From Patescibacteria group bacterium (GTDB lineage: Bacteria; Patescibacteriota; Minisyncoccia; UBA6257; JAKLIH01), in assembly GCA_022709715.1 (NCBI GenBank), contig JAKLIH010000001.1:64225-128224 (forward strand): DNA of 64,000 bases, read 5' to 3'. The notes under the pieces are model-generated. The model was not told the origin of the DNA. It did not search any database and saw nothing but the letters and a program-made list of their open reading frames with translations. This document shows positions 1-61,139 of the stretch, piece after piece (within the stretch, counting starts at the first letter, position 1; the number at the start of each line of letters is the position of its first letter). Made by a program: the position numbers and the translations under genes.

Positions 1-168
1 AGTACAAGACTTTGTGTTGTTAGGAGAAATATCTGGACAAGCACTAGGATTACCATTTTTATCAGCAATAGTTAAAGCGTTGGCTTGATTGTTATTAACA
101 AAAACCAAGGCGCTTAAAATTACGACCAAAACAATAAACAATTTTTGATAAATATTTAAATTTTTCAT
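1..168 (-). CDS. hypothetical secreted/membrane-anchored protein, N-terminal part only (ORF leaves the window)
   Basis: ATG at 166-168 on minus strand; MKNLNIYQKLFIVLVVILSALVF... signal-like hydrophobic segment; host-like AT-rich composition. Confidence 0.5.
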   Translation of the reverse strand, partial: MKNLNIYQKLFIVLVVILSALVFVNNNQANALTIADKNGNPSACPDISPNNTKSCT

Positions 169-230
169 ATTATTTTTTTGACTCTAAAAATTAAGTTTTA
201 GAGTTTTTATTAATTATTTTATTTATTAAG

Positions 231-259
231 ATTATATCATTTTTATACCTGTGTGTCAA
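231..259 (-). promoter_or_regulatory. sigma70-type promoter for the 1-168 gene
   Basis: minus strand TTGACA (254-259), 17-nt spacer, TATAAT (231-236) with TGn extension. Confidence 0.6.
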
Positions 260-342
260 TTGATAGTCAACAATGAGAAAAGTTGTTTTCGACTAAAAAC
301 AACTCAAATTAACTATCAAGACTATTAGTTTTATATACGTAT

Positions 343-392
343 ATTATACCATTTTTTATATCTTTTGTCAATACCGTCTGTGGATAACTTTT
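343..392 (-). promoter_or_regulatory. second promoter plus direct-repeat copy 1 (contains TTATCCACA 9-mer)
   Basis: minus strand TTGACA (366-371), 17 nt, TGgTATAAT (343-351). The 363-392 segment recurs at 3694-3724. TGTGGATAA on plus strand at 379-387. Confidence 0.55.
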
Positions 393-402
393 TAGCTTAG
401 TA

Positions 403-504
403 TTTTAAAGCATTCCAAAGAGCAATAAGTAAAAATCGTAACAATATCTGTTTGGAGAGAGAGATATTATCACTGATTTTTCTGCCCTTCGAAATGCTTT
501 AAAA
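403..504. repeat. palindrome h0 (12-bp arms TTTTAAAGCATT/AATGCTTTAAAA, about 78-nt interior)
   Basis: inverted repeat 403-414 / 493-504; occupies the position that h1-h3 occupy in the other cassettes. Confidence 0.5.
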
Positions 505-514
505 CACTAAAACT

Positions 515-657
515 CCATTTACTCAGCAAATTAAAATATTTAATATTTAATTTGCTGAGAGACGGAGGGGAGGAACACTCCCCATGTGGAGATTCAACTC
601 TTTGTCAATATTATCAATCTCCCGATAATACTGAAGAGACTCTGCTTTCTCATGGCT
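515..657 (-). ncRNA. conserved structured RNA module, copy 1 (3' of ORF 725-1168)
   Basis: About 90 percent identical to 2430-2566. Contains GGGGAG/CTCCCC hairpin (567-583), 14-bp CTCAGCAAATTAAA palindrome and an H-type pseudoknot (588-594/616-622 with 597-615/624-638). Substitutions are wobble-compatible only on the minus strand. Confidence 0.45.
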
Positions 658-724
658 CACGTGTGTTGGTTTTTATGTATAAAACCATTCCCGTGATACA
701 AAAAATTTACCTTTTTACTGGAGG

Positions 725-1168
725 TTATTCGTGAGGCACATCCTGTTTCCGAGGTCTATACCCATGACATTTGTTGCAACAAACACTAAGGACTTTGTAC
801 GTTCTATCTCGACCTAGAGAACAATGATTATTGACCGCACAACCGCACGTCAAATGCCGCGATTGTGATTCTATAATCTTCCACCCACGCTCCCAGTCTT
901 CTCTACATACTTCTTCCTCATTGCAATGCACTTGAGAAATATGCATTGCATACGATATCAGGGTTTCATCACGGATCAAAGAAATCCGTGAATCTTGATT
1001 CTTCTGCAAAACCTGATCACAAGTATAAATAATCGTACTCAGACTCGACCGATAGGAAGTTGCGCACTCTTCCTGTTCGGCCATTTCTGATAGATTACAT
1101 AACTGTTTAGCTACGTAATTCAACGTCTCTTGGTCCAGCTCCTGTGTTAAATCTAACTCTTTATCCAT
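725..1168 (-). CDS. hypothetical 147-aa protein, acidic N-half, Cys/His-rich C-terminus (CGC...C...CCNKCH)
   Basis: intact ORF, SD AAGGAAGGTG upstream, GC-rich, no TGA, TAA stop. Confidence 0.7.
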   Translation of the reverse strand: MDKELDLTQELDQETLNYVAKQLCNLSEMAEQEECATSYRSSLSTIIYTCDQVLQKNQDSRISLIRDETLISYAMHISQVHCNEEEVCREDWERGWKIIESQSRHLTCGCAVNNHCSLGRDRTYKVLSVCCNKCHGYRPRKQDVPHE

Positions 1169-1215
1169 TTTTTCACCTTCCTTGCCCTCATTAGGGGATT
1201 TGTAAATTTTTCTGC

Positions 1216-1267
1216 TTTTCAGCAGAGATTATTCTACTAGCAATAATAAAATAATCTCTGCTGAAAA
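1216..1267. repeat. palindrome h1 (perfect 18-bp arms TTTTCAGCAGAGATTATT, 16-nt loop)
   Basis: arms 1216-1233 / 1250-1267; lies between the conserved AATTGTTCTTTAAAA box and the SD of ORF 725-1168. Confidence 0.8.
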
Positions 1268-1270
1268 CTA

Positions 1271-1335
1271 TGTTTTAAAGAACAATTCCATTTACTCAGC
1301 AAATTAAAATATTTAATATTTAATTTGCTAAGAGA
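1271..1335 (-). promoter_or_regulatory. conserved inter-cassette box (AATTGTTCTTTAAAA plus CTCAGCAAATTAAA palindrome), copy 2
   Basis: near-identical to 500-560 and 2413-2470; possible TTGCTG-17-TTTAAA promoter on minus strand. Confidence 0.4.
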
Positions 1336-1460
1336 TGAAGAGATTTTTTAAAGAGAAATCTCGGAAAACTCTGTTTAACTTTATTTGATCTTGATTTATA
1401 TGGGAAACCAACAAAACCTCGGATCCTACGTTCTGAGTCACCGAATCTCAGTTGTTGGTC

Positions 1461-2240
1461 TTATAGAGATTTAGAAATCTCTTTAAAAACCTGGAGCGCG
1501 TCATCCTCTGAGAACTCAACCCCACGTGGAGTTGAGCAGGCCTTAGGGTGGCCTGCAAATTCGATGCCGGCGACTATCTTGCCGGCAAATGCGTATTGCG
1601 ATTTGGGATCGCAATATATAGAAACGGTTTTGTAGTGGTTACGATAAACCACTACGATCTTGACACCATCCTCATATGGACGAGATGGGTCAAGAGGATC
1701 TTGGGCTCCTATAGCCCAAAACCCCACCTTACCATCAACTGCCTTTCGGCAGTGAAAATAAGAATTTTCTGATTTTGTTTGGGCCTCACGGCCCATTTCA
1801 ATGATCTCTGTGTCAGGAACAGAGATCATTTCTTCCACAATAGCAGTAACGTCCTGCCATTGTTCTGCTGACACTCGCGGAAAATTTAATTTTCGCGCGA
1901 GCGCAGTGATCCCTACTGAGTAGCATAAGGTAGGATTGGTTTTAATGGGGCAGACGCTACTGCCTTTTAAGTCGATCTGCTCAAGAAGAGTAAGATCGAT
2001 ATTTGGCAGTGATTTACCTGCCAATCTCAAGATACCAACAAACGTGTCAGCATCAATGTGAGTGATCTCAACAGCTGCGTTGAGATCGCTGGCCTTTTGA
2101 ATTCGTCCGTCATTACACGGACTCGGGTTTTTGGAATATTGACCATGATGATCAAAATTCCTCACCCCATCATCCATCCCCGCTTCCAGAGAGAACACGC
2201 ATCCTCTACCGGATGCTTTTGACCATAATTGATATCTCAT
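1461..2240 (-). CDS. hypothetical 259-aa protein with His/Asp-rich motifs (NFDHHG, THIDADT); possible metal-dependent hydrolase
   Basis: intact ORF; 33/60 G+C counted at 1501-1560; SD AAAGGAGAAAAAAA; no TGA, TAA stop. Confidence 0.75.
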   Translation of the reverse strand: MRYQLWSKASGRGCVFSLEAGMDDGVRNFDHHGQYSKNPSPCNDGRIQKASDLNAAVEITHIDADTFVGILRLAGKSLPNIDLTLLEQIDLKGSSVCPIKTNPTLCYSVGITALARKLNFPRVSAEQWQDVTAIVEEMISVPDTEIIEMGREAQTKSENSYFHCRKAVDGKVGFWAIGAQDPLDPSRPYEDGVKIVVVYRNHYKTVSIYCDPKSQYAFAGKIVAGIEFAGHPKACSTPRGVEFSEDDALQVFKEISKSL

Positions 2241-2341
2241 TTTTTTCTCCTTTCAGAGAAATTTAAGAAACTTTTTAAAGTTTCTAATGAATTATAGTTC
2301 TTTAAGAATTGAAGGGTTTATCCCTACTATAATTCATACCA

Positions 2342-2403
2342 CTTTTCAGTAGCTAAGAAATAATTTTAGATTTTTTTAAAATTAAAACTTAGCTACTGAA
2401 AAG
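2342..2403. repeat. palindrome h2 (perfect 16-bp arms CTTTTCAGTAGCTAAG, 30-nt loop)
   Basis: arms 2342-2357 / 2388-2403; same position and same outer bases as h1 and h3, unrelated inner sequence. Confidence 0.8.
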
Positions 2404-2429
2404 ATGCTTTTTGTTTTTAAAGAACAATT

Positions 2430-2566
2430 CCATTTACTCAGCAAATTAAAATATTTAATTTGCTGAGAGATGGAGGGGAGGAACACTCCCCATATGAAGA
2501 TTTGACTCTTTATCAATATTATCAATCTCCCGATAATATTGAAGAGACTCTGCTTTCTCGCGGCTC
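2430..2566 (-). ncRNA. conserved structured RNA module, copy 2 (3' of ORF 2700-2999)
   Basis: aligns with 515-657 with only transition differences; lacks the 7-nt loop duplication of copy 1. Confidence 0.45.
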
Positions 2567-2699
2567 CAGTGTGACTTTTTGTTTTAAAACAGAAGTATCC
2601 CTGGATACGAAACTGTTTACCCATGCTTTAACCCCCGTGGATTTTAGGGGAACCTCAATTAAGAATAATTGGGGATAAAATATCTTCTAACGCATTGGT

Positions 2700-2999
2700 T
2701 TAATGCGTTTCAAGATATGACAATTCCTCCTCTTCTGTGGGTGTCCAATAACACCCACAAACATTACAGATGAATATCGAATGATCCATTGGATCATCCC
2801 TGTCGGATGGTGGGTAATACCCAAAATCCTTATGCCCTGTGTTTTTGCCACAGAGCTCTTGGAACTTCCGTTCCAAGACTTTTTTTTGCTGGAACATTTC
2901 GTCCCAGCTTTTTTTCTCTCTTTGAAGTCGCTCTTGCAACTCCAAATTTTCTTTTCTAAGTCCATCTATGACGGACTTTCTGATAATAATCCATCCCAT
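2700..2999 (-). CDS. hypothetical 99-aa protein (coiled-coil-like middle, C-terminal CNVCGC motif)
   Basis: ORF with SD AAGGAGAAAAAAA before ATG; preferred over the overlapping frame 2687-2965, which has no SD; no TGA, TAA stop. Confidence 0.6.
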   Translation of the reverse strand: MGWIIIRKSVIDGLRKENLELQERLQREKKSWDEMFQQKKVLERKFQELCGKNTGHKDFGYYPPSDRDDPMDHSIFICNVCGCYWTPTEEEELSYLETH

Positions 3000-3077
3000 T
3001 TTTTTCTCCTTGCCAATTTTTGAAAACTGGCAGCGTATATCTATTATTCCCGATATACAGGGAAATTTATTTTTGCT

Positions 3078-3126
3078 GTTTTCAGCATATAAAAGTTAAA
3101 AGATTTAACTGCTATATGCTGAAAAC
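3078..3126. repeat. palindrome h3 (perfect 14-bp arms GTTTTCAGCATATA)
   Basis: arms 3078-3091 / 3113-3126, followed by AATATTTTAAAGAACAATT box. Confidence 0.8.
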
Positions 3127-3528
3127 AATATTTTAAAGAACAATTTACATATTCGCTCACTGATACTAATGCTAATATAGTGGGCGATTAAAACTGGTTT
3201 TATTTAAAACCGGCTTTAATCGCCGACCAAAAAGGTGAGTTAATCCTTTTTTCGGCATAAATGTATATAGTTCCCTATAGACATTTAGGTGTGGCCTTGG
3301 TTTGAACAATCTTGTTCGCGAACCAAAGAAATACCGATTGTTTGATCGTCTGCTTCAAACAATATGAATATTTTTTTCCACTAGACGAAATTTTTGATTT
3401 AAAAATATTTGCGTTTCAACCAAAATAGATAGTAAACAAATAGGTTTTTGCTTGCGAGAGATTGCAAGGCATAAATTTTTAAATCAATAGTTTTTTAAAT
3501 GTACAAATAAAAAAACTAAAATATAATG

Positions 3529-3560
3529 AAAAACGGCTCTTTTTGGAGAGAACCGTTTTT
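3529..3560. terminator. bidirectional rho-independent terminator
   Basis: AAAAACGGCTCT-TTTTGG-AGAGAACCGTTTTT; A-run before and T-run after the stem. Confidence 0.6.
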
Positions 3561-3587
3561 ATATGAAAATTGATTAAAACATCGCTA

Positions 3588-3640
3588 TAGCTCTCTCCTT
3601 CTACAACTTTGTTTTATTGCCTATTAGCTCTCTCCTTCTA
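3588..3640 (-). repeat. two copies of TAGAAGGAGAGAGCTA (minus-strand reading), SD-like
   Basis: 16-nt direct repeat at 3588-3603 and 3625-3640. Confidence 0.6.
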
Positions 3641-3674
3641 ACAAGCAAATTGTTATTTTTAGTTTATAAAATCA

Positions 3675-3724
3675 GTATAACATATTGTTTCTGTTTTGTC
3701 AATACCCCTTTGTGGATAACTTTT
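3675..3724 (-). promoter_or_regulatory. promoter plus direct-repeat copy 2 (contains TTATCCACA 9-mer)
   Basis: minus strand TTGACA (3697-3702), 16 nt, TTATAC (3675-3680); 3694-3724 matches 363-392 (13+14 identical nt around a 3-4 nt variable core). Confidence 0.5.
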
Positions 3725-3792
3725 AAGAATACTGCAAATATAATAGTAAATATTGATTCAAATGTTTTGTTTGTTTATAGATTATAAAACTA

Positions 3793-5304
3793 TTAACCCA
3801 TTAAATGTTTATAATTTTTTAAAATGAAACTAATTGCCTCCTCTTTAGTTTTTAATTTTCCTTCTTTTTGTTTATTGTAAACACTGTTTAAAATCGTTTT
3901 GAAATGGGGCCCGGTTTTAAAACCAAGCTTAAGCAAATCTTTGCCTTCAATTAGTTTTTCCAGCTTATTATAAAAAACATCCATGGCTTTGGCTAATTTA
4001 ATCAGCTCTAATAATTTTTCAATGTTTAAAGCATTTAGCTGATTCAACGGTTGACGACCCATGTAGTCAGATTCAATGACCATGGACAGATCTTTAATGG
4101 TAGCTGGTTTTATTTTATCGGAAAGTTTTTTAACAAATTTTTCCGTAACAGTTTGAACTCCCACTAAAGCATCATGATTTTTTATTAATTGCAAAATGAT
4201 AGGAATATCTTTTAAAGGAAAATTAATTTGTCGTAAAAAACTTTTTGTAAACGAAGTTGATTCGCTAGCATGACCATAGGCAGTTATTTTTTCACCTTCA
4301 ATTTTTGTGGTGGTTACTTTGCCGAAATCGTGGCATAAAACGCTCAGCATTAAAATAAGTTGATCAGCTTGTGAAAGTTTTTCTCGATTACAAATTTTTT
4401 TAGCATGATCAAGTGACTGAGAGGTATGCTCAAAAACATCGCCCTCGGGATGATATTGTTTGGGCTGTTGAAGATTTATTAAGTTATAAATTTCCGGATG
4501 TAATTTTTCTAAGATCTTGAGTTCTTTAGCAATTTTTAATCCTAGACCTGGTTGATTTGATTTTAAAAGCATTTTAGTTCATTCTTCGCCAATGCGAGAT
4601 GCGCTCAAAAAACGTAAATCAATTTGTTGGCAAAGAGTTTTGGTTTTGGTGTCAATACTAAAACCCAAAATGGAAGCAAAACGCATAGCTCGCAAAACTC
4701 TTAATGGATCTTCAGAAAATTTCTTATTGTCAACGTGCTTTAATTTCTTTTCTAAAATATCTTTTAGACCACCGTGTTCATCAATGATTTCGCCTGTAAA
4801 TGGGTCTAGACCAAGAGCATTGCAAGTAAAATCGCGACGGGACGAAGCAATTTTAAAAGATAGCTTGGGATCAAACTTAGTTTTAAAGTCTGAATGTTTT
4901 TCACCAGTTTTTGAATCTTTGCGAGGTAAGGCAATATCAATGTTTGCACCAACTTTATATACACCAAAACTTTTACCAACTAAATTAGGAGTGGTACTTT
5001 CATCTTCAGATAGCGTTGATTCTAAAACATCAGGTTTAATATCATAGATCTCAATATCAATATCTTTAAAATCAACTTCGGATTTTTGTCCAAATTTTTT
5101 AAGAACTAGATCTCTAACAAAACCGCCAATTAAAATTGGTCGGCCATTTTGTTTTTTAATTAAAGCACAAATATCAAGAACTTTTTGCATGGTTTTTTTA
5201 TCGGGAACTGAGACGGTTTGATCAATTATTTCTTTGAGAGTTAAAACCGTTATTTTAGGCAAATTGGATTGCTTGGCAATTCTTTTTTGTTCTTTGATAA
5301 TCAT
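3793..5304 (-). CDS. cca: CCA-adding enzyme / poly(A) polymerase-family nucleotidyltransferase with HD domain
   Basis: ORFs 4579-5304 and 3793-4572 are in frame, joined by one TGA; GGFVRD, RRDFT and HD (HDFGK) motifs. Confidence 0.85.
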
Positions 5305-5328: not shown

Positions 5329-7068
5329 TTACATTTCAAAATAAGCCTCTTTAGTTATTTGCGATTCTTTTAAATTAAGTTTTTTTATAAACTTTTTTAA
5401 ATCAATTTGGCTGGCGTTGTCAAAACGCACTTCCACAAAATTTCCTAATTCGACTTTTTTATTGTTTTCTATTTTGGTTACCTGATTGTCAATAGAAAAA
5501 ATTATATTGTCTAGCTTAAAAAGAATTCTTTCTTTTTTAATTTTTTTAACAATGTTGGGATAAATCTGACTGATAACTTTTTCAGTTTGGTCATCAATAT
5601 AAAATTCAAATTTCGGTCTTTCCCTAACTTCATCTTTCTTTTTCGGCCCTTTATAGGTAATGATTTTTTTACCACCTTCATTTCTAATTCTTAGAATTTC
5701 TCCGGTCATTTTTAAATCTCGATCTTGAGGATTAAAATAGGTATCAGTTTGAATAGTTGAGCTTAAAATTTCAGCTCCGATTTCGCGAAGATAATTGATG
5801 TCTAGTGAAGTTTTAAATTTAACCTGTTTTTCACTCATGCCGGATTTTTCGGATTCAATATTTGGATTATATTCATTGTTGATAATTAAATCGGCTTTCT
5901 TTTTGGTGGCATCAATATATTTTTCGTGCATGGGTTGCACGACTTGAAGAAAATATTTAAAAATATCTAGTGGCTTTTGCCCGGTTCTGGTAATGTCTCT
6001 TAGCAATCTACGAATAATTCGACCGTGAGCACCAATTTCAACAAAAACTTTTAAGTCACCATAAGATTCTAAACTTTTGTCTAAAACAAATAAGCCTTCA
6101 GCGATAATAATTTTTTTAGGAAAAACTTTTTCAGTTGTTAAAGATTCACAGGCCTTCATGTCGTAGATCGGTTTATCAACTGATTCATTATTTTTTAATT
6201 TCAATAAATGTTTACCGAACAAATCTAGATTCACGGCTTCGGGTTGATCTCAATTTAATATATGTCCTTGTTTATATTCAGATTGTATAAATTGATTGCC
6301 TTTGTAATAATCGTCACAAGAAAAAATGATAGCTTGATCTGGAAAATTATCTTTGATTATTTTTGAAACGGCACTGGTTTTACCAGAAGCTGATCCCCCG
6401 GCAATTTGAACAATTAAATTATCTTTAGTATGTTTTAATTTTTCATTTATTAAATTTGTCAGTTCTTTGAGGCCAGATTCAAGAGAATATTCTGGGATTG
6501 ATAATTTTTCATCAACTTCTTTTTTCTTTTCTTGAGGAATGAAAATGTATCCTTGTGATAAATTTTTATTTTTATATAAACTATTTTCAGTTTGTTCTTC
6601 GCCAAATCAATCGGGTATTATAAAATCATTACTTTCATCTTCATCATCAAACTCTACCTCAGCAAGAATTAAACCATTTAATCTACCTTGATACACATCA
6701 ACTTCAATTGTAAATTTTTGATAAGGAATTTTATAACGAATTTTTTCAATCTTTGACTCTAAAGTTCCGGATCACAATGAATCAAATTGTTTTTTGGAAA
6801 TTTTTATTTCAATTTCAGTTCGAATTTTGCCATCACCCTTTTTTATAGTTTGAAAATATTCGTTACCATGTTGACGAAGTCTTATTTCGGAGCCATCATC
6901 GATAATTGCTAAATAACCTTGTAAAATTTTTTGATGAGGATATTTTAAAAATTTTTCGGGTAAATTTTTAATTAAAAACTTTCTTTCAATTTCTTGATGT
7001 TTTTTTGCTTGAGCAATTTTATTATTTTTACTAATTTTTAAATTAATTTGCTTTTTCTGTTTTTTCAT
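5329..7068 (-). CDS. CYTH - uridine-kinase-like P-loop - CYTH fusion protein
   Basis: Three ORF pieces in one frame joined by TGA. N-terminal EIERKFL CYTH, GGSASGKTS P-loop, second CYTH-like C-terminus. TGA falls at the conserved Trp of the CYTH PDW motif. Confidence 0.75.
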
Positions 7069-8992: not shown

Positions 8993-9020
8993 CATCTCTG
9001 CTTTTATGGTTTTACTAGAA

Positions 9021-9327: not shown

Positions 9328-10311
9328 ATGAAAAATAAAATTCCTAAAGTAATTGTAATCGGTGGTGGAACTGGTGCGTTTAATACATTGATGTCTTTAA
9401 AAAAATTCCCAATCGATTTAACAGCTATTGTTTCAATTGCTGATGATGGCGGATCATCAGGTGTGCTTCTTGAAGATTTTGGAATTTTACCACCTGGTGA
9501 TATAAGAAGAGCCTTGGTGGCAATGGCACCGGATTCGGCAAAACTTTTAACTAAACTTTTTAATTATCGTTTTGAAAATGGTTCAGGGTTGCGAGGCCAC
9601 AGTTTTGGTAATTTATTTTTAACCGCCCTAACTAGTATTACAAAAAATTTTAATAAAGCTGTGGATGATGCTGGAAAAATTTTAAACATTAAGGGTAGGG
9701 TGGTACCAGTATCACTGGATCAATGTCGATTGATTGCTAAACTCAAATCCGGTATTTTTATTTTTGGAGAAACCAATATTGACATTCCTAAAAATAAAGA
9801 AAAAAATATTTTTATTGAAAAAATATTTTTAAACACCAAAGTCAATGCCAATCCGGAAGCCATAAAAGAAATTAAAAAAGCCGATTATATTATTGTTGGC
9901 CCGGGAGATCTATACACAAGTATCGTGCCAAATTTTTTAGTGACTGGTATTAAAGAAGCCTTTCAAAAATCAAAAGCTAAAAAAATTTATATTTGTAATT
10001 TAGTAACTAAATTTTCAGAGACCAATGGTTTCACAGCAATTGATTTTTTAAAAACGTTAGAAAAATATATTTGTAAAAAATGTTTTGATTATATGGTCAT
10101 CAATGACTTTCAAAAAATTCCTAAAAGATTAATTAATGTTTATAAAAAGGAAAAAAAGTTGCCAGTCAAATTCAATAAAAGAGAATTTCAAAATAATAAA
10201 AAAATGAATATTGTGATTGATGACTTAACTAGAAAAAATATGTTATTGCGTCACGATCAAAAAAAACTGGGAGAAGCCATTTGAAAAATTATACAAGCTA
10301 ATAATGCTTAA
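9328..10311 (+). CDS. YvcK/CofD-family (UPF0052) protein
   Basis: GGGTG and IADDGGSSG motifs; one TGA read-through near the C-terminus; TGgTATACT promoter upstream. Confidence 0.8.
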
Positions 10312-29162: not shown

Positions 29163-30716
29163 TTACTTATTGTAGTGATCGTTGTGCGGACCACTGACAA
29201 CCTCAACCTCATCGAAGGAGAGCTCTCGGTTAATGAGGACTACGGGCTGTTCATATCCGCCCTTGTACTCGCTAATCGGAACGATCGTACGACCTCTTGC
29301 GCGAGTGAAATCGGCAATCTCGGCGTTGGTAAACTGATCCCGACCCTTCTCCATTGCATCGCCGAGCTCCTTGCGTCGCTTTTCGTACTGCGCATGATCG
29401 GCGATGTAGATGTCGTTTGCTCGATTGGGTTTTATTCGGATCACGAAACGCTCGTTGCCTGACCATCGGTAATAGCCTGGCACTTCGAGCGAATTGACGG
29501 TCATTTCGGCTGTCACTTCACCAATACCACACCAGAGAAAGCCTTCGTAGGCGATCTTCGGCAAAGTGCCATCATCAGACACACCGAGCGAAACAAGACG
29601 ATGGCCGTTGCCCAACAGACCATAACGATCTGCCGGTTCGAGCTTCTCTGCATCATTCTTGCCCTGCTTGATTCGTTCCGCTTCGTCATAATCGCCGAAG
29701 CAGAAAAGTTGTCCGATGGACTCAGGAAAAGGAATCGGTTGCGGCGGAATGAACATGTCGATCTTTTCTGTTGGGATCGGACATAACATAATCGCTTGAA
29801 GTATGACATCGCGCAGGTATTGCTCGAACTCCCCCATAACCCCTGCAGTTGCGAAGAATTTTGGTTCGTCGCCCTCAGGATCATACTGGCGGCCCAAATC
29901 GTTTGTGTGAACCAAACACGGTGATCGACGACCCCGATGTGTGTGAGCCATTCGAGCTAACTCCTTAGTATCATCCATGAACATGGCGTTCAGGAAACCG
30001 ACGCCTTCAAAAGTGGCTCCTGCCGCTGCCTGACAGTTACATTCGCCCTTGTACTTGAGAAACATCTTCGGTTCGCCGTTAAGCTTACAGTTGACCTTCG
30101 AGCTATTCATGAACTTTTTGCGATCTCGCTTATAGTCGTTGCCAACATAGAGATAGAAAGTTGGCCCCGATTCGTCTTGATAGACGTGAAGCTCCTTCTT
30201 CGGAATCACAAGTTCGGTTACAGCTGCCGTGTCATTCCAGTGACCACCAGGTATGGTACGCTGCACTCGGCAAAACCAGAGTTTAAAATCCTGACCGCTG
30301 ATCTGTGAGACGAAACGGAACTTCTGAGCTCCACTTCCATACTTATAGAATTCAACGATGATGCCCGGCACCTGCCAGTTGCGCTTTTCGAGCTCACGAA
30401 CAATCTGCTCGCAAGTCGAATCAAACGGAAATTGTTGTACACTCGGATAGAGAAATTGTACCTGATTGCTCTTTTCTGCTTGCTCGTCAGACGGTCTAAA
30501 AAACCGTCCAATTTTTGCACGCCACCCAGCGCACTTTTTCTGAAGTTCCCCAAGCAATACAACACTGCCTTGTTCTGGCCACTCCTTCTCTCTCCAAACT
30601 GTGGGATCGAGTGAGAATGTCACCGAACCTTCAATTTGGTCTGAAGTTGCGACCGCGAAGGGGCCATGTTTGCCCTTAGGCACCACTTTCTGAACTACTG
30701 CTTTTAAATCATTCAA
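29163..30716 (-). CDS. orphan 517-aa protein, no domain recognised
   Basis: 1.55-kb uninterrupted ORF; 34/60 G+C counted at 29581-29640; TTG start 7 nt after AAGGAGG; 8 Trp all TGG; TAA stop. Confidence 0.8.
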   Translation of the reverse strand: MNDLKAVVQKVVPKGKHGPFAVATSDQIEGSVTFSLDPTVWREKEWPEQGSVVLLGELQKKCAGWRAKIGRFFRPSDEQAEKSNQVQFLYPSVQQFPFDSTCEQIVRELEKRNWQVPGIIVEFYKYGSGAQKFRFVSQISGQDFKLWFCRVQRTIPGGHWNDTAAVTELVIPKKELHVYQDESGPTFYLYVGNDYKRDRKKFMNSSKVNCKLNGEPKMFLKYKGECNCQAAAGATFEGVGFLNAMFMDDTKELARMAHTHRGRRSPCLVHTNDLGRQYDPEGDEPKFFATAGVMGEFEQYLRDVILQAIMLCPIPTEKIDMFIPPQPIPFPESIGQLFCFGDYDEAERIKQGKNDAEKLEPADRYGLLGNGHRLVSLGVSDDGTLPKIAYEGFLWCGIGEVTAEMTVNSLEVPGYYRWSGNERFVIRIKPNRANDIYIADHAQYEKRRKELGDAMEKGRDQFTNAEIADFTRARGRTIVPISEYKGGYEQPVVLINRELSFDEVEVVSGPHNDHYNK

Positions 30717-43424: not shown

Positions 43425-44954
43425 ATGAACGTTTTACAAAATATTGCTTTTTCAATTATCAATCTTACACCTCCTTGATTTTTTAATTTGTTAAATTTTT
43501 CATCCTGATTTTGAGTTCAGGTGTTTACCGGGCTATCGATAGTATTTATAATCAGAATGGTTTATGTTTTTTTGAGTACCAAATCAAGATTCGCTAAAAC
43601 TGGTAAAACTTCTTCAGCCCAACTAGCTAATTTAATAAAAGAAAAAAATACGGTTTATCCAAAATTTTCAATTATTGTGCCCGCTAGGAACGAAGCTGAT
43701 GTTGTAGAAAAAACCATCAAAAAATTAATCCAATTGGATTATCCAAAAGATAGGATGGAAATAGTTATTATTACTGATCAAAAAGAAAAGTTGAATAATC
43801 CGGATAACAAAATTACCACTCAAGAGGTCATTCAAAAAGTTCAGCAAGAATTGAGCGATCAACCAGTAAAAATTTATCATTTAGATGTTCCTTATAATTT
43901 TGATGGGTTGTTCAAGGGAAAACTAATGGAGTATGAAATAAAATCAACCAAGGGTAGAGCTTTAAATTATGCTTTTACGGAAATGTTTGATCATTTTAAT
44001 CAGAACACCGACTTTTTTGCTTTTTTTGATACCGATGATCATCCTGATAAACGCTGTTTAATTGAAGTGGCCAGAGAAAATATATTGCACCCACATAAAA
44101 ATGTGTTTCAGTTGCCAATTTTTCAATGTCGAAATTTTTGACAAATTTCAACTTTTTGTAAAATCATCGCCTTAGGCCAATCTTTTTCTCATGAAATATT
44201 TTTGCCTTGAGTGTTAACTTGATTACCATTTTTGGGTGGAACTAATTTGTTTATACAAAAAGATGTTTTATTTCAAGTTGACGGATTTAATTATAATTCT
44301 ATAACCGAAGACCTGGATTTGGGCATTACAATATATTTAAAAACCGGCAATTGACCATATTATTTGCCATTAGCTTCAACCGAACAAACTCCGGATAATG
44401 TTAAGGCCTATTTAAAACAACGCCATAGATGAGCTTTGGGGCAACTAGAAGTTATAAATCATTTAAAAGCCCAGAAAAAATTAAAAACCCCGATTGGCAA
44501 AAAATCAAAAATATTATATTATAAATTAAGTGTTTATGGACCAACCGAATGGGTTGTTTATTTCTTGGCTACAATTTTAAGTATGGTGGTTCTACTTACA
44601 CGACTGTTAAGAACTATTGTCGTTATAATTGGCATGCAACAAGTAATTAATTTCTTCTCAATATCATTATTAATAAAGGAACTGTTTATCTCGATTTTTA
44701 CTTACGCCGGTATGCCAATGATCGTCTTCTCGTTGTTTTTACTATTACACTACAATCGTTATATTGAGTATAAAGAAAGCGATTGAGCTATTTGTAAAAA
44801 GTTTTTAAAGTTTTTAGCGGAAACTTCATTAATTATACCTTTTATGGTGGTTTTGTATCCTTGACCATTCTTCTCGGCATTTTTCAAATATATAACCGGC
44901 TACTATCGCAATCGTGAATTAACCTGAGTTAAAACGCCAAGGACTAGGGAGTAA
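43425..44954 (+). CDS. family 2 glycosyltransferase with multiple TM segments
   Basis: VPARNE, FFDTDD and a QRHRW-like motif (Trp as TGA); many TGA. Confidence 0.75.
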
Positions 44955-45822: not shown

Positions 45823-48800
45823 ATGGATGAAAAAACAAAAAAAATTGATAATCAACATGATCAAATTATAGCTTGCGATATTAGCCAAGAATTAAAAGAA
45901 TGCTATATTGATTATGCCATGTCCGTAATTGTGGCAAGAGCTATACCTGATTGCCGAGATGGTTTAAAGCCAGTACAAAGAAGAATTCTTTATTCTATGA
46001 AAGAGCTAGGTATGGCACCAAACACAAAATTTAAGAAGAGTGCATTAATCGTTGGTCATGCTATGGGTAGATATCATCCTCATGGCGATATGGCTATTTA
46101 TGATACATTAGTTAGAATGGCCCAGCCATTTTCTTTAAGATATATGTTGGTTAATGGTCAAGGCAATTTTGGATCAATCGACGGCGATCCAGCAGCAGCC
46201 CAAAGGTATTGCGTAACCGGAGATAGCTTAATTCTGACTAGTAAGGGATTAATAGAAATTGGTTCTATTTCAAATAAAAGAGAGACAAAGATCGATTTGA
46301 ATATATCTAATTTCCAAAGTAAAAAAGTTAAAGCTGATAAGTTTTTTAATTCTTGAAAACATCCTACAATAACAATAAAGAATAAAATGGGATATGAAAT
46401 TACTGGTTCATATAACCATCCTGTTCTTTGCTTGGAAAAGAATGTTGAGCAAAAACCGACTTTGGTTTGAAAAACATTAGAAGAAATCAAGAAAGGGGAC
46501 TATACAATAATAAATCGAAGTTCCAATTTATTTAGTGATACAAATTGTGATTTAACACAATATTTTCCGCAACAAAACAATAGGCGTGATAAAATTACTT
46601 TGCCTAAAGTAATGACAAAAGAATTGGCTTTTATATTAGGAGCGTTGGTGTCAGAAGGATCGTTTCATCAAGGAAATATATTATTTATTAATAAAGATAT
46701 CAACTATTATAATACAGTTAAAACATTGCTGAAAAAGGTATTCCCAGAAATTAAAATTTACGAGAGACAGCTATCGAAATGCAAGTCATGAGAAATGACT
46801 ATATATCAACGCTATTTAGTAGAATTCTTTATTAACATTGGGTTAACTAATGTGAAATCACACCAAAAAGAAATCCCAAGTACAATTTTAAGGTCTCAAA
46901 AAGAAATAATTGCAGAATTTTTAAAATCTTTATATGAATGGGACGGGGGTGTTGTTTATAGACAAGACAAGAGACATGGTGGCGAGTGTATATGCATAGA
47001 TTATGATTCTAAAAGCAATAAATTAATTAAACAATTGAAAATATTATTGTTGAATTTTGGTATTGCAACTGCTAAACCCATTAGAGATAAAAGAAACGAA
47101 TGCATGAAGCTTGAGATTAATGGACAAAATAATTGTTATATCTTTAAAAATACTATTAATTTCTTTTCAGAACATAAAAGAAGTATTTTATCTAAGATAG
47201 ATGGGATTAACAATAACAGAATGTCTAAGAATGATTTTGTGCCATTTCTTAATGATTATTTAAGAGCTAATTACCCACAAACATTTATTAAAAAACATAA
47301 TCTGGATCGATATAATAAATTGCAATTAAATTATTGAACAATTAAATCGTTATTAACGCAAAGCGATCAGGTTTTGATTGAAAATATTCTAAAATATAAT
47401 TTTCTTTTTTCTCCAGTTGAGGAAAAAATTAAAAATCGGAAATCGGAAAATGTTTATTCTATACGAGTTGCAAATGAATGTCATTCTTTTGTCGCCAATG
47501 GCTTTGTAAATCATAATACGGAGTGCCGAATGATGCCATTAGCCGAACAAATGTTTGAAGATATTGAAAAAGAAACAGTTGAATTTGTGCCTAATTATGA
47601 CAATAATTTAAAAGAGCCAAAAGTGCTACCAACAAAGTTCCCTCAATTATTGTTAAACGGTACTACCGGTATTGCTGTGGGTATGGCCACAAATATCCCG
47701 CCTCATAACTTGAGCGAATGTATGGATGCGGCCATATTTTTAGCTGATAATCCAGATTGTAATACTGATGATTTAATGCAATTTATAAAAGGCCCGGATT
47801 TTCCAACTGGTGGCACGATTTATGGTTGAAATGAAATAAAAGAGGCCTACAGCACTGGCAAGGGAAAGGTTTTAATCAGAGGTACAGCTGAAATTATGGA
47901 AAATGGTAATACCAACCAAATTGTTATTACTGAAATTCCTTATATGGTTAATAAATCCGAATTAATTAAAAAGATTGCCGGATTAATTGAAGACAAAAAA
48001 ATTATTAATATCAAAGATATTCGCGACGAATCAGATAAAAATGGTTTAACTATTACTATTGATCTTAAAAGGGAAGCTAACCCTAAAAATATTTTAAACC
48101 AATTGTATAAATATACTGATTTAGAAAAATATTTTCATGTTAATTCTATTGCTTTAATTGACGATGGTTTGCAACCGGAATTATTATCATTGAAAGACAT
48201 GCTCAATGAGTTTTTGAGTTTTCGAAAAAATGTTGTCTTCCATCGAACTCAATTTTTACTACGTAAAGCTAAAGAAAGATTACATATTCTTGAAGGTTTA
48301 AAAACAGCCTTAGATCATATTGATGAAATTATTGATATTATTAAAAAATCCGAAAATAAAGAAGATGCCAATTTAAAACTTTGCAAGAGATTTAAATTTA
48401 CAGAAATTCAAGCCAACGTCATTTTAGAAACAAAGCTTCAAGCTATTGCTAAGTTGGAAAAAATGAAAATTTTAGACGAGCTTAAGGCGAGAAAAAATGA
48501 AATTGATGATTACGAAATGACTTTAAAAGATCAGAAAAAAGTTATAAAAATTGTTAAACAAGAATTTGCTGAAATTAAAGAAAAGTTTGGCGATATTCGT
48601 CGCACTAAACTAGTAAAGGGCATGCCCGATAAAATTGAAGAAGCCGATTTAATACCGGATGAAAACGTTTTAATTACTATGTCCCAAAATGGCTATATAA
48701 AAAGAATGAATTCAAATATTTTTAGAACCCAACAACGAGGCGGTAAAGGTATTATTGCCTATAATGCTGGCGACAATGATGTACTCGAGCATATATTAAA

Positions 48801-49593
48801 TGTAAGCACAAAAGATAATTTATTGTTCTTCTCAGATCGAGGTAAAGTATATCAAACTAGCGCTTACGATATTAATGATGGTTCTCGAGAATCAAAAGGT
48901 AAAGCCATTCAAAATTTCATTGACATTACATCGGATGAAAATGTTTCGGTTGTGCTTGGTTATAATCAAGAAATGACAAAGTCAAATAAATATTTGATTA
49001 TGGCCACTAAAAATGGCGTGATTAAAAAAACCGAATTAGAAGAGTTTAAAAACATTAGAAAGAATGGGTTACTATCAATAAAATTAGATAGAGATGATTT
49101 ATTAAAATGAGCTGATTTTTCATCCGGCGATGATTTAGTTTGCTTAATAACAAAGCAAGGTCAATCAATTACTTTCTCAGAAAAAGATGTAAGATCAATG
49201 GGCAGATCAAGCTCGGGCGTTACTGGCATTAAACTAGGTAAGGAGGATGAAGTTGTTGGTATGATGGTAATCAAAAAATCATCCAACAAATCAGTTGACG
49301 CAATTGTTTCTTTGAGCCAATTTGGTTTTGGCAAAAAAACCGCCATAAAAGAATATCGAATACAAAAACGAGGTGGTAGTGGTATAAAAAACTTTAAAGT
49401 CACAACTAAAACTGGATTGTTAGTATCTAGCAAATTGGCTAATACCCAAGAAATATTAATAACTATATCTAAAAATGGTTTAATTCTACAAACCGAATTA
49501 AGCGCCATTCCTTGTTTAAGCCGCACAACCCAAGGGGTTAGAATTATGAAACTGGATGAAGGCGATCAGGTATCGGAAATAGTGTTATTATAA
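45823..49593 (+). CDS. gyrA: DNA gyrase subunit A (precursor containing an intein)
   Basis: single frame across 9 ORF pieces; extein motifs [15 protein letters not shown] / TE..., [14 protein letters not shown]. Confidence 0.95.
46210..47517 (+). mobile_element. GyrA intein (436 aa) with LAGLIDADG homing-endonuclease domain
   Basis: Starts with Cys right after the catalytic Tyr (RY|C) and ends VNHN|T. Splicing blocks [10 protein letters not shown] and VYSIRV...[21 protein letters not shown]-like [12 protein letters not shown] and [13 protein letters not shown]. Confidence 0.9.
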
Positions 49594-60953: not shown

Positions 60954-61065
60954 ATAAAGCTATATTAACATATTTACATTTTTTTATCAATATTTTTCGC
61001 TGTCATAAAAGAATTTAAATACTTGACCGATGTATTTATGTTTATTATTTTAATTAACATCTTGG

Positions 61066-61139
61066 TGGGCGTAAATGGATTCGGACCATTGACCCCGGCT
61101 TTATAAGAGCCGTGCTCTAACCAGCTGAGCTATACGCCC
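61066..61139 (-). tRNA. tRNA-Ile (anticodon TAT)
   Basis: GGGCGTA...TACGCCC-A; anticodon loop CTTATAA; T-loop TCCGAAT. Confidence 0.8.

Follow-up and report, generated by a model that had tools for sequence, protein, structure and literature searches.

What occupies positions 363-3724 of the 64,000-nucleotide segment of contig JAKLIH010000001.1 (Patescibacteria group bacterium) that was analysed here as a whole, and is called the window below? This 3.3-kb island holds three minus-strand open reading frames (ORFs), each terminated by TAA and each placed behind a strong Shine-Dalgarno (SD) sequence, with hairpin-forming sequences between them. A preliminary description had proposed either a gene-cassette array built by site-specific recombination or a coherent three-gene defence or toxin-like system. 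The comparisons reported here indicate that the island behaves like a shuffling gene-cassette array, with a putative mechanism of shuffling. The explanation preferred, to which roughly an even chance is given, sees in the block an array of accessory genes that varies between strains (an 'ORFanage', or hyperplastic region) and is carried by a Paceibacterota/Minisyncoccia chromosome that reads UGA as Trp; the repeated modules of the array would act both as RNA elements and as recombination substrates. The window as such is bacterial chromosome, with 10 tRNAs, gyrA, clpP and the gene of a CCA-adding enzyme, and the three ORFs were confirmed where they had first been placed:

2999-2700, minus strand: ORF3, 99 aa, coiled-coil with a CxxC motif, an ORFan; its SD sequence is AAGGAGAAAAAAATG
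2240-1461, minus strand: ORF2, 259 aa, predicted divergent DHH/DHHA1-fold phosphoesterase of a family found in phages, plasmids and the Candidate Phyla Radiation (CPR)
1168-725, minus strand: ORF1, 147 aa, a Cys-rich ORFan

The same order of elements is found on the sense strand before every ORF, namely a box, 5-12 nt, a hairpin and a leader with the SD sequence, and exact motif matches bear out this layout as it had been described. The box is an exact 15-mer, AATTGTTCTTTAAAA, present in three copies, all on the minus strand, with no further exact copy in the 64 kb. There are three palindromes of the form TTTTCAG-N-CTGAAAA in the window, where chance alone would give 0.06, and both motifs are confined to the three array sites. 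The elements of the array are:

3131-3145, minus strand: box copy 3, exact match to the 15-mer
3079-3125, minus strand: hairpin h3 in the ORF3 5' leader; -25.7 kcal/mol, z-score -8.6
2426-2573, minus strand: A-type module copy 1, an irregular long hairpin, with a GGGGAG..CTCCCC hairpin at 2475-2491 and an AT-rich hairpin at 2437-2467
2415-2429, minus strand: box copy 2, exact match
2343-2402, minus strand: hairpin h2 in the ORF2 5' leader, with a symmetric 3x3 internal loop
2241-2342, minus strand: leader of ORF2, containing the SD sequence and two more hairpins
1284-1340, minus strand: AT-rich hairpin after ORF2, a partial module with a C-type upstream part at 1341-1460; 93% identical to 511-567
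1273-1287, minus strand: box copy 1, exact match
1216-1267, minus strand: hairpin h1, the junction at which the array is polymorphic; continuous 23-24-bp stem without extrahelical bases
511-665, minus strand: A-type module copy 2, with a GC hairpin at 567-583 and an AT hairpin at 522-559
397-510, minus strand: h0, 28-nt arms (397-424/483-510) that are 86% complementary, with a degenerate box; end of the array

Hairpins h1 to h3 are 47-60 nt long and have stems of 20-24 bp on the sense strand; their folding energies are -25 to -31 kcal/mol, and their z-scores lie between -8 and -11. They had been presented as perfect palindromes with common outer bases. The shared outer TTTTCAG/CTGAAAA, hereafter the foot, holds, but perfect pairing is restricted to the outer 13-18 bp; complementarity is 89-92% overall, and the stem of h3 carries a single mismatch. 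The degenerate fourth palindrome, h0, likewise exists as a long inverted repeat but is devoid of the conserved foot. Because a T-run lies 5' and an A-run 3' of h1 to h3, these hairpins are not intrinsic terminators, as had been argued before. Miniature inverted-repeat transposable elements and repetitive extragenic palindromic sequences were also considered and rejected, since the copies share the foot alone and are palindromic over their whole length. Searches of Rfam returned tRNAs and nothing else at the gathering threshold over the 64 kb, and nothing more than chance microRNA-like matches on the hairpins at E<=5 over positions 1-4000, and on these results a known RNA family was discarded for the array elements.

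The 3' sides of the genes are repetitive as well. Modules of about 150 nt, overlooked in the preliminary description, follow ORF3 and ORF1 and are 88-91% identical, and their AT-rich hairpin, CTCAGCAAATT...AATTTGCTGAG, occurs three times, including once 3' of ORF2. As sense RNA the A-type consensus folds into three hairpins, and no clear U-tract was seen at the GC hairpins of the downstream modules. An ORF crosses the A-type module on the plus strand; as the two copies differ by 2 synonymous versus 7 non-synonymous changes, coding potential was rejected and the module is regarded as non-coding on that strand.

Comparison of strains, suggested in the preliminary description, revealed that gene content after h1 differs between near-identical strains and that the junctions are mosaic. 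The block itself is assembled identically in more than 8 independent samples (JGI, NCBI, ENA and Logan), which excludes a chimeric assembly, the artefact that had caused concern. Across 16 contigs ORF3 and ORF2 are invariant and the genes after h1 vary. In allele A, that of the window, h1 is followed by ORF1. Allele B, recovered from three samples (contigs L008, L009 and L029), is 99.95% identical to the window from position 9000 to 1210 and departs from it directly after the 3' foot of h1. The next elements are a 143-aa ORFan and a downstream module of a second type, then a box with an h3-like hairpin, a 72-aa coiled-coil/CxxC gene, a further module, another box and a second h1, and then an ORF1-type leader and a gene starting MDCKKI instead of MDKELDL, where the contig stops. 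ORF1 is present in the allele-B samples on separate contigs that begin just upstream of h1; samples containing both alleles are JGI 3300009782, 3300010355 and 3300009776 and ENA ERZ761564. Assemblies of the same species therefore show three successors of h1: ORF1, the 143-aa ORFan or a third gene.

Further junctions add to this mosaic. The hairpin h1 is joined to a B-type module and box in contig L045 and to the 3' region of another cassette in L046 and L047, and the box-hairpin spacer in these contigs reads TAATA versus CATAG. At least four contexts upstream and at least three downstream were counted for h1, with identical copies preceding three different genes, and the alleles were seen to break on the 5' side of the box, between box and hairpin, at the 3' foot or at the start codon. 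Hairpin h3 and its allele-B counterpart h3' agree at 45 of 47 positions (96%), whereas the ORFs behind them, ORF3 and its weak 72-aa paralogue in L008, share 27% aa identity; the regulatory units are thus far better conserved than the ORFs. Contigs break at the repeats, and the long allele is seen in pieces. No strain with an empty site in place of the block was found among those compared. Another genome, L015 (GCA_028709345.1), differs from the window by 35 mismatches clustered in the CCA-enzyme gene (4027-5294), with none in 2711-4026, a pattern that indicates a putative local recombination tract from a diverged strain; a block-specific sweep was rejected, the downstream flank being near-identical too.

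The hairpins themselves also vary in an informative manner. Four variants of the h2 family are available (one in the window, one in L010/L012 and two in L018), and their outer 15-bp helix is 100% paired, against 23-61% in slid controls. The helix includes five pairs with compensatory double changes and two G.U intermediates; one position passes from U-A in the window to U.G in L010/L012 and to C-G in L018. A compensatory change also affects the foot of the h3-like hairpin of L008, which reads TTTCCAG/CTGGAAA. The sense fold is as stable as the antisense fold or more so in 7 of 8 hairpins, with 6 versus 2 G.U pairs (for h1, which has two G.U pairs, -30.6 versus -23.7 kcal/mol). All four one-sided changes at paired positions of the A-type module keep pairing through G.U on the sense strand, and the last hairpin of the ORF2 leader retains its shape in the L018 orthologue on a wholly different stem (AGAAACTTT/AAAGTTTCT versus GGGTATTTT/AAAATACCC). 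Judged from these substitutions, the hairpins are shown to be selected for pairing with a sense-strand bias, and the palindromes may be viewed as structured elements, in agreement with the preliminary description. Together, the compensatory pairs, the G.U bias and the shape kept in the L018 leader hairpin suggest action of the sense strand in single-stranded form. They argue for RNA as the simplest reading, the alternative being a folded sense DNA strand.

One of the L018 hairpins deserves separate mention. At 2352-2413 of this contig (Ga0116185_1043425), from a related organism that uses code 4, an h2-like hairpin with the foot TTTCCAG/CTGGAAA and no box lies 3' of a host-type radical S-adenosylmethionine (SAM) gene, with four compensatory pairs relative to the window h2. 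Since it follows a host-type gene, h2-family hairpins are not confined to foreign cassettes.

RNA-like covariation with a sense-strand bias would equally suit an ordinary horizontally acquired operon, in which the hairpins are only sites of transcript processing or stability, the strain differences are incidental indels and the modules have nothing to do with gene mobility. The stem length of 20-24 bp, which is the size of RNase III substrates, and the constancy of ORF3-ORF2 in the 16 contigs speak for such an operon. It is nevertheless judged quite unlikely, given that there are at least 3-4 alleles, which in independent samples exchange unrelated ORFans precisely at the borders of modules, that the regulatory units have been conserved so much better than the ORFs, and that the same h1 unit stands before three genes.

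Codon use and composition set the genes of the array apart from their host. TGA outnumbers TGG in the long host ORFs outside the block (125 versus 54), and it occurs in frame in the CCA-adding enzyme gene (5304-3793, minus strand) and in many more host genes. In a GT2 glycosyltransferase gene (43425-44954, plus strand) it occupies the W of QRHRW, an instance of the QxxRW motif, and TGA is therefore taken to encode Trp (code 4) in this host. The first report of UGA reassigned to Trp within the class Minisyncoccia of the Patescibacteriota is a preprint of 2026 (10.64898/2026.05.24.727570). Translation with code 11 splits both the CCA-adding enzyme and a CYTH-PRK-CYTH protein (5329-7068, minus strand) solely at in-frame TGA. 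The Trp codons of the three ORFs are 8 TGG and 0 TGA (P about 7e-5; 3 and 0 in ORF3 alone), and their GC content is 0.41-0.46 against 0.30 in the rest of the window. The foreign composition first noted for the ORFs is borne out by both measures, and the G+C counts given for it (33/60 at 1501-1560 and 21/60 at 9361-9420) are exact. The allele-B cassette genes are likewise free of TGA, with GC of 0.41-0.43; the host radical-SAM gene adjoining the ORF2 orthologue in L018 has a GC of 0.27 and in-frame TGA. Being TGA-free and GC-richer in a host in which UGA means Trp, the cassette genes are foreign, and a gene pool with the standard code is therefore their source or has them in common with this host. 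TGA-free cassettes in such a host bear on horizontal transfer across genetic-code boundaries.

The window contains a second foreign-looking gene (29163-30716, minus strand; 517 aa, GC 0.50, 8 TGG and 0 TGA), for which no Pfam or NCBIfam match was obtained. A TTGACA...TATAAT promoter of its own and, upstream, two perfect palindromes that contain GC (~30975-30935 and ~30905-30870) give it a layout unlike that of the box/hairpin cassettes.

Both borders of the block were found to carry promoters. The two flanking direct repeats of the preliminary description, 363-392 and 3694-3724, each with a TTGACA promoter and a 9-mer, were recovered; they differ by a 1-nt indel and both belong to near-perfect sigma-70 promoters:

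3674-3719, minus strand: upstream boundary promoter, TTGACA-17-TATACT at 3702-3674 (11/12 matches, with a TG extension); TTATCCACA at 3719-3711, just upstream
343-387, minus strand: downstream boundary promoter, TTGACA-17-TATAAT at 371-343 (12/12 matches); TTATCCACA at 387-379
3529-3560, minus strand: intrinsic-terminator-like hairpin from the terminator scan, closing a leader or small transcript of ~140 nt from the 3702 promoter

The upstream promoter is a diverged direct repeat of the 343-387 promoter (repeat families D7/D10/D13), and the duplication extends into the leader, with 81-86% identity over about 50-80 nt. Exact TTATCCACA occurs only twice in the window, once per boundary promoter; a replication origin was rejected for these repeats, as there are two exact copies and no cluster, and counts with one mismatch are at chance. 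The ~140-nt leader (3525-3672, minus strand) holds two copies of TAGAAGGAGAGAGCTA, at 3588-3603 and 3625-3640 in plus-strand coordinates (repeat D19), and from its sequence this leader may be an attenuator gating read-through into the array. The GGAGAGAG part of the TAGAAGGAGAGAGCTA copies can pair with TTCTCTCC of the terminator 5' arm, and the second copy is followed by a mini-ORF, ATG TTT TAA. Beyond the other border lies the next host gene, for a secreted protein starting at ~170; a second perfect promoter (12/12) at 259-231 serves it, and in all two tandem 12/12 sigma-70 promoters precede it (231-371, minus strand). A short hairpin with a T-run lies at ~300-270, downstream of the 371-343 promoter, from which an RNA of ~65 nt may arise; its start resembles the leader from the 3702 promoter.

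On the accessory-array explanation, independently acquired foreign genes would each reside in an equal, self-contained expression cassette, with the 15-nt box, a hairpin of 20-24 bp placed at the leader 5' end or close to it and a strong SD sequence on its 5' side, and with a GC-rich and an AT-rich hairpin on its 3' side. The box could be a promoter or a protein-binding element, and the hairpins, once in the mRNA, could either stabilise 5' ends or serve for RNase III-type processing, by which the cistrons would be uncoupled. The repeated modules would provide the homology for gain, loss and swap of cassettes by general or short-homology recombination, a route favoured over one fixed crossover because the junctions lie at several positions. 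Exchange may possibly proceed through excised circles, as with the promoter-early stem-loop (PeSL) cassettes of T4-type phages. Entry of the whole block was probably by a crossover of the Campbell type, in which the flanking promoter became duplicated; the diverged promoter-leader duplication fits circular DNA integrating by a single crossover at that place.

Several observations weigh against this explanation. The promoter scan detected no sigma-70-type promoter at the three boxes, which would leave the box as a putative regulatory element of the cassette; at other loci some variants of the box region resemble TTGAAT-16/17-TAAAAT. All of the variation is at one hairpin, h1, and none at h2 or h3. 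The L045 junction implies a crossover within ~15 nt of identity, that is, within the box itself, a short stretch for recombination of the RecA type, and one that would fit a site-specific enzyme. PeSL stem-loops are terminator-like, whereas the long hairpins of the array have no 3' U-run and are not terminators. Also, the motif appears narrowly distributed: a scan for box plus hairpin in metagenome, GTDB-genome and IMG/VR collections, evidently without the window's own contigs, recovered a single related locus, L018, the rest being single chance matches in unrelated phyla. In these collections the motif is confined to this species and its relative L018, which is weak evidence for its absence elsewhere.

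Another explanation is that a new, integron-like system captures cassettes at hairpins, with a distant recombinase recognising the box and the foot, possibly on folded single-stranded DNA. Each ORF has one hairpin, in a common orientation, with outer bases conserved and inner arms variable, and the strand-biased G.T pairs would fit a folded sense DNA strand too. The window and L008 part exactly at the 3' foot of h1, the L045 junction lies inside the 15-nt box, and the modules are lineage-specific and missing from phage copies of ORF2, as if foreign ORFs were packaged locally. No recombinase was present, however, among the Pfam-annotated genes within ~10 kb upstream or 6-7 kb downstream, where the preliminary description had advised looking for one, nor did a crude regular-expression search find an HxxRH (Tyr) or Ser-recombinase motif in any frame of the 64 kb. 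Neither an integrase nor a transposase lies in those flanks, and the feet do not resemble the attC R''/R' consensus. All 24 bp of the h1 stem are paired, with no extrahelical base, breakpoints occupy at least four positions, and h1 is reused before different genes, while every integron cassette comes with an attC of its own. Capture of this kind is considered unlikely, though the box crossover of L045, the restriction of variation to h1 and the module-free phage ORF2 together leave a small place for some dedicated recombination system. A specifically patescibacterial version, with lineage-specific box/hairpin sites, a hairpin- or box-acting enzyme and a gene pool kept TGA-free and hence shareable across codes 11 and 4, is held to be rather improbable. 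Of the earlier proposal of an array made by site-specific recombination, the cassette-like, strain-variable character stands; the absence of a nearby recombinase, the non-attC feet and the scattered junctions argue against the site-specific part.

What the cassettes encode bears on a further possibility. None of the three proteins had been assigned to a family, which still applies to ORF1 and ORF3 and no longer to ORF2. A protein of "Candidatus Paceibacterota" metagenome-assembled genomes matches ORF2 at 100% identity, and ORF2 has 93 homologues in CPR genomes, phage contigs and the Clostridium botulinum plasmid pCLK. Most of them are on phage contigs; among the phage settings are neighbourhoods with a tape-measure protein, RecT or an SNF2 helicase, and IMG/VR contigs of 40-105 kb. 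The neighbours of the homologues differ at every locus examined, with ORF1 or ORF3 alongside at none, and the phage copies are without box/hairpin modules. By blastn, the block had no match in the phage collection and a sole match in the plasmid collection, of 151 nt, inside the pCLK homologue. ORF2 had no Pfam match at E<=1, hence neither DHH (PF01368) nor DHHA1 (PF02272), no NCBIfam match and nothing significant in PHROGs, and the family profile found no PDB sequence.

The AlphaFold2 (AF2) model of ORF2, with a mean confidence (pLDDT) of 96.3, gave a different result. Foldseek matched it to PggH, NrnA/Pde2, RecJ and GdpP at a probability of 1.0, and the best 40 PDB matches were all of the DHH family (probability 0.77-1.0, E down to 3.6e-5), with TM-scores against DHH/DHHA1 structures of only 0.3-0.44; phage and giant-virus DHH proteins were matched as well. 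Residues D30 H31 H32, H61 D63 D65, D90 and G230 H231 are invariant in 46 sequences of the family. The predicted two-domain fold and the invariant DHH, HxDxD, D and GH residues are thus shared with the DHH/DHHA1 phosphoesterases NrnA, PggH, GdpP/Pde2 and RecJ; ORF2 differs in that DHH (30-32) precedes HxDxD (61-65), contrary to the canonical order, and in its length of only 259 aa. On the strength of the model ORF2 is a predicted phosphoesterase of the DHH/DHHA1 fold, and the motif order together with the missing Pfam DHH match places it in a divergent subfamily. DHH-type phosphoesterases degrade pApA, pGpG and c-di-AMP, and by analogy with its family ORF2 may hydrolyse short or cyclic oligonucleotides. 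Several sources label the family "VanZ", a name that receives no support from the family and fold searches and is apparently an error. ORF2 defines an unannotated, phage-borne, DHH-like phosphoesterase family, mislabelled VanZ, and is a candidate hydrolase of nucleotide signals or nanoRNA.

ORF1 and ORF3 yielded self matches only among 5.8e9 clusters, as did ORF1 in a full HMMER scan of 1.84e9 representatives, and neither has a family in Pfam, PADLOC, PHROGs or NCBIfam. The allele-B genes gave nothing significant in the same four collections. The single-sequence AF2 model of ORF1 (pLDDT 40.7) is unusable, and its C-terminal CxC...NH...CxxCH segment appears HNH-like by eye, an assignment rejected because no HNH model matched. 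ORF1 and ORF3 are best explained as small zinc-finger-like ORFans.

The substrates of the DHH class, together with a Csx3-domain gene and a DEAD helicase near the ORF2 homologue of L002 and an Apyc1-like metallo-beta-lactamase near that of L023, could be held to favour a three-gene defence, toxin-antitoxin or anti-defence system with its own RNA elements and cooperating components. This is regarded as very improbable. The three proteins have no match in PADLOC (E<=1), Pfam or NCBIfam, and a known defence system was rejected on the PADLOC result; the lack of homologues of ORF1 and ORF3 means that there is no conserved gene set, the surroundings of ORF2 change from locus to locus, and allele B inserts other genes between ORF2 and ORF1. 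The coherent three-gene system of the preliminary description is abandoned on these grounds.

Two features elsewhere in the window were recorded. The gyrA gene (45823-49593, plus strand) is interrupted by an intein, as read from the translation only: its first residue is the C after ...AAQRY, its end, ...VNHN, is followed by TECRMM, and a segment within it resembles LAGLIDADG. A tRNA-Ile with anticodon UAU (61063-61139, minus strand), unusual in bacteria, adjoins tRNA-Val(GAC).

A second CPR case with a comparable design was found. The genomes of CPR/Patescibacteria are tiny, and little is known of how they gain and turn over accessory genes. An accessory island in the GC-rich CPR genome L002 (GCA_030698385.1, JAUYLZ010000037.1; 4600-11900) has a similar design on unrelated sequence. 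A 171-nt repeat, composed of two hairpins, a TGTTCCTTACAAT box, a long hairpin and an SD sequence, is present there in three copies that are 74-96% identical, upstream of three genes: the ORF2 homologue, the Csx3-domain gene and one for a 376-aa protein in which DHH and DPDADG motifs occur. The same layout on unrelated sequence suggests that the cassette design may be widespread in CPR accessory islands. The L002 island also contains an 84-nt repeat and five GAGGGAT...ATCCCTC terminator-like hairpins, and hhalign gave no significant relation between the ORF2 family and the DHH-like 376-aa protein.

Among known systems, the early genes of phage T7 are separated by the RNase III processing hairpins R0.3-R1.3, and 5' stabiliser stem-loops occur in bacterial and phage mRNAs. 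Like the T7 sites, the array has long hairpins (at least 20 bp) 5' of each cistron in a same-strand series of genes, alike in structure and not in sequence, and not terminators. T7 sites have internal loops, without conserved foot or upstream box, and are not junctions of gene-content variation; cleavage of the array hairpins is predicted from their structure.

Integrons, and the clusters of attC sites lacking integrons (CALINs), from which IntI is absent by definition, resemble the array in being unidirectional, with one imperfect palindrome per ORF, conserved ends and variable interiors, strand-biased pairing, strain-variable cassette content and many ORFans. The array differs in being without IntI (in the searched flanks), attI and Pc, and in having feet of the form TTTYCAG/CTGRAAA instead of the attC boxes RYYYAAC (R'') and GTTRRRY (R'). 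The attC fold has an unpaired central spacer and extrahelical bases, whereas h1 is continuous, h2 has the 3x3 loop and h3 one mismatch. Each hairpin of the array lies upstream of its ORF beside the SD leader, the same hairpin may stand before different genes, conserved modules of ~150 nt are added, and breakpoints keep to no single position. A canonical integron was rejected on the lack of an integrase in the flanks, of attC R boxes and of extrahelical bases, and on the position of the hairpins 5' of the ORFs.

The closest described analogue is the PeSL system of T4-type phages. There, ORFans in the hyperplastic regions have short repeated promoter/stem-loop cassettes beside them (Arbiol et al. 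2010, PMC2839356; Comeau et al. 2014, PMC4122927). These cassettes recombine with one another, partly through mini-circles, and thereby produce the insertions, deletions and replacements by which close relatives differ (PMC2839356). Both systems have a repeated intergenic stem-loop with SD sequence and start codon flanking mostly ORFan genes, indels and replacements between near-identical genomes that end in the motifs, motifs better conserved than the genes they flank, and no dedicated recombinase present. The array differs in its location in a bacterial (CPR) chromosome, in the lack of a detectable sigma-70 consensus in its box where PeSL motifs contain a strong one, in its much larger modules (~100-250 nt, with up to five hairpins) and in hairpin interiors that differ between cassettes around a conserved foot; mini-circles, a PeSL feature, are putative for the array. 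The locus presents population-level gain and loss of ORFans at hairpin modules that covary, and no recombinase is seen near it. If these modules do drive the shuffling, they would give searches for accessory-gene hotspots in CPR genomes a concrete signature and would extend to a bacterial chromosome the principle known from PeSL phages, in which regulatory repeats serve as recombination handles.

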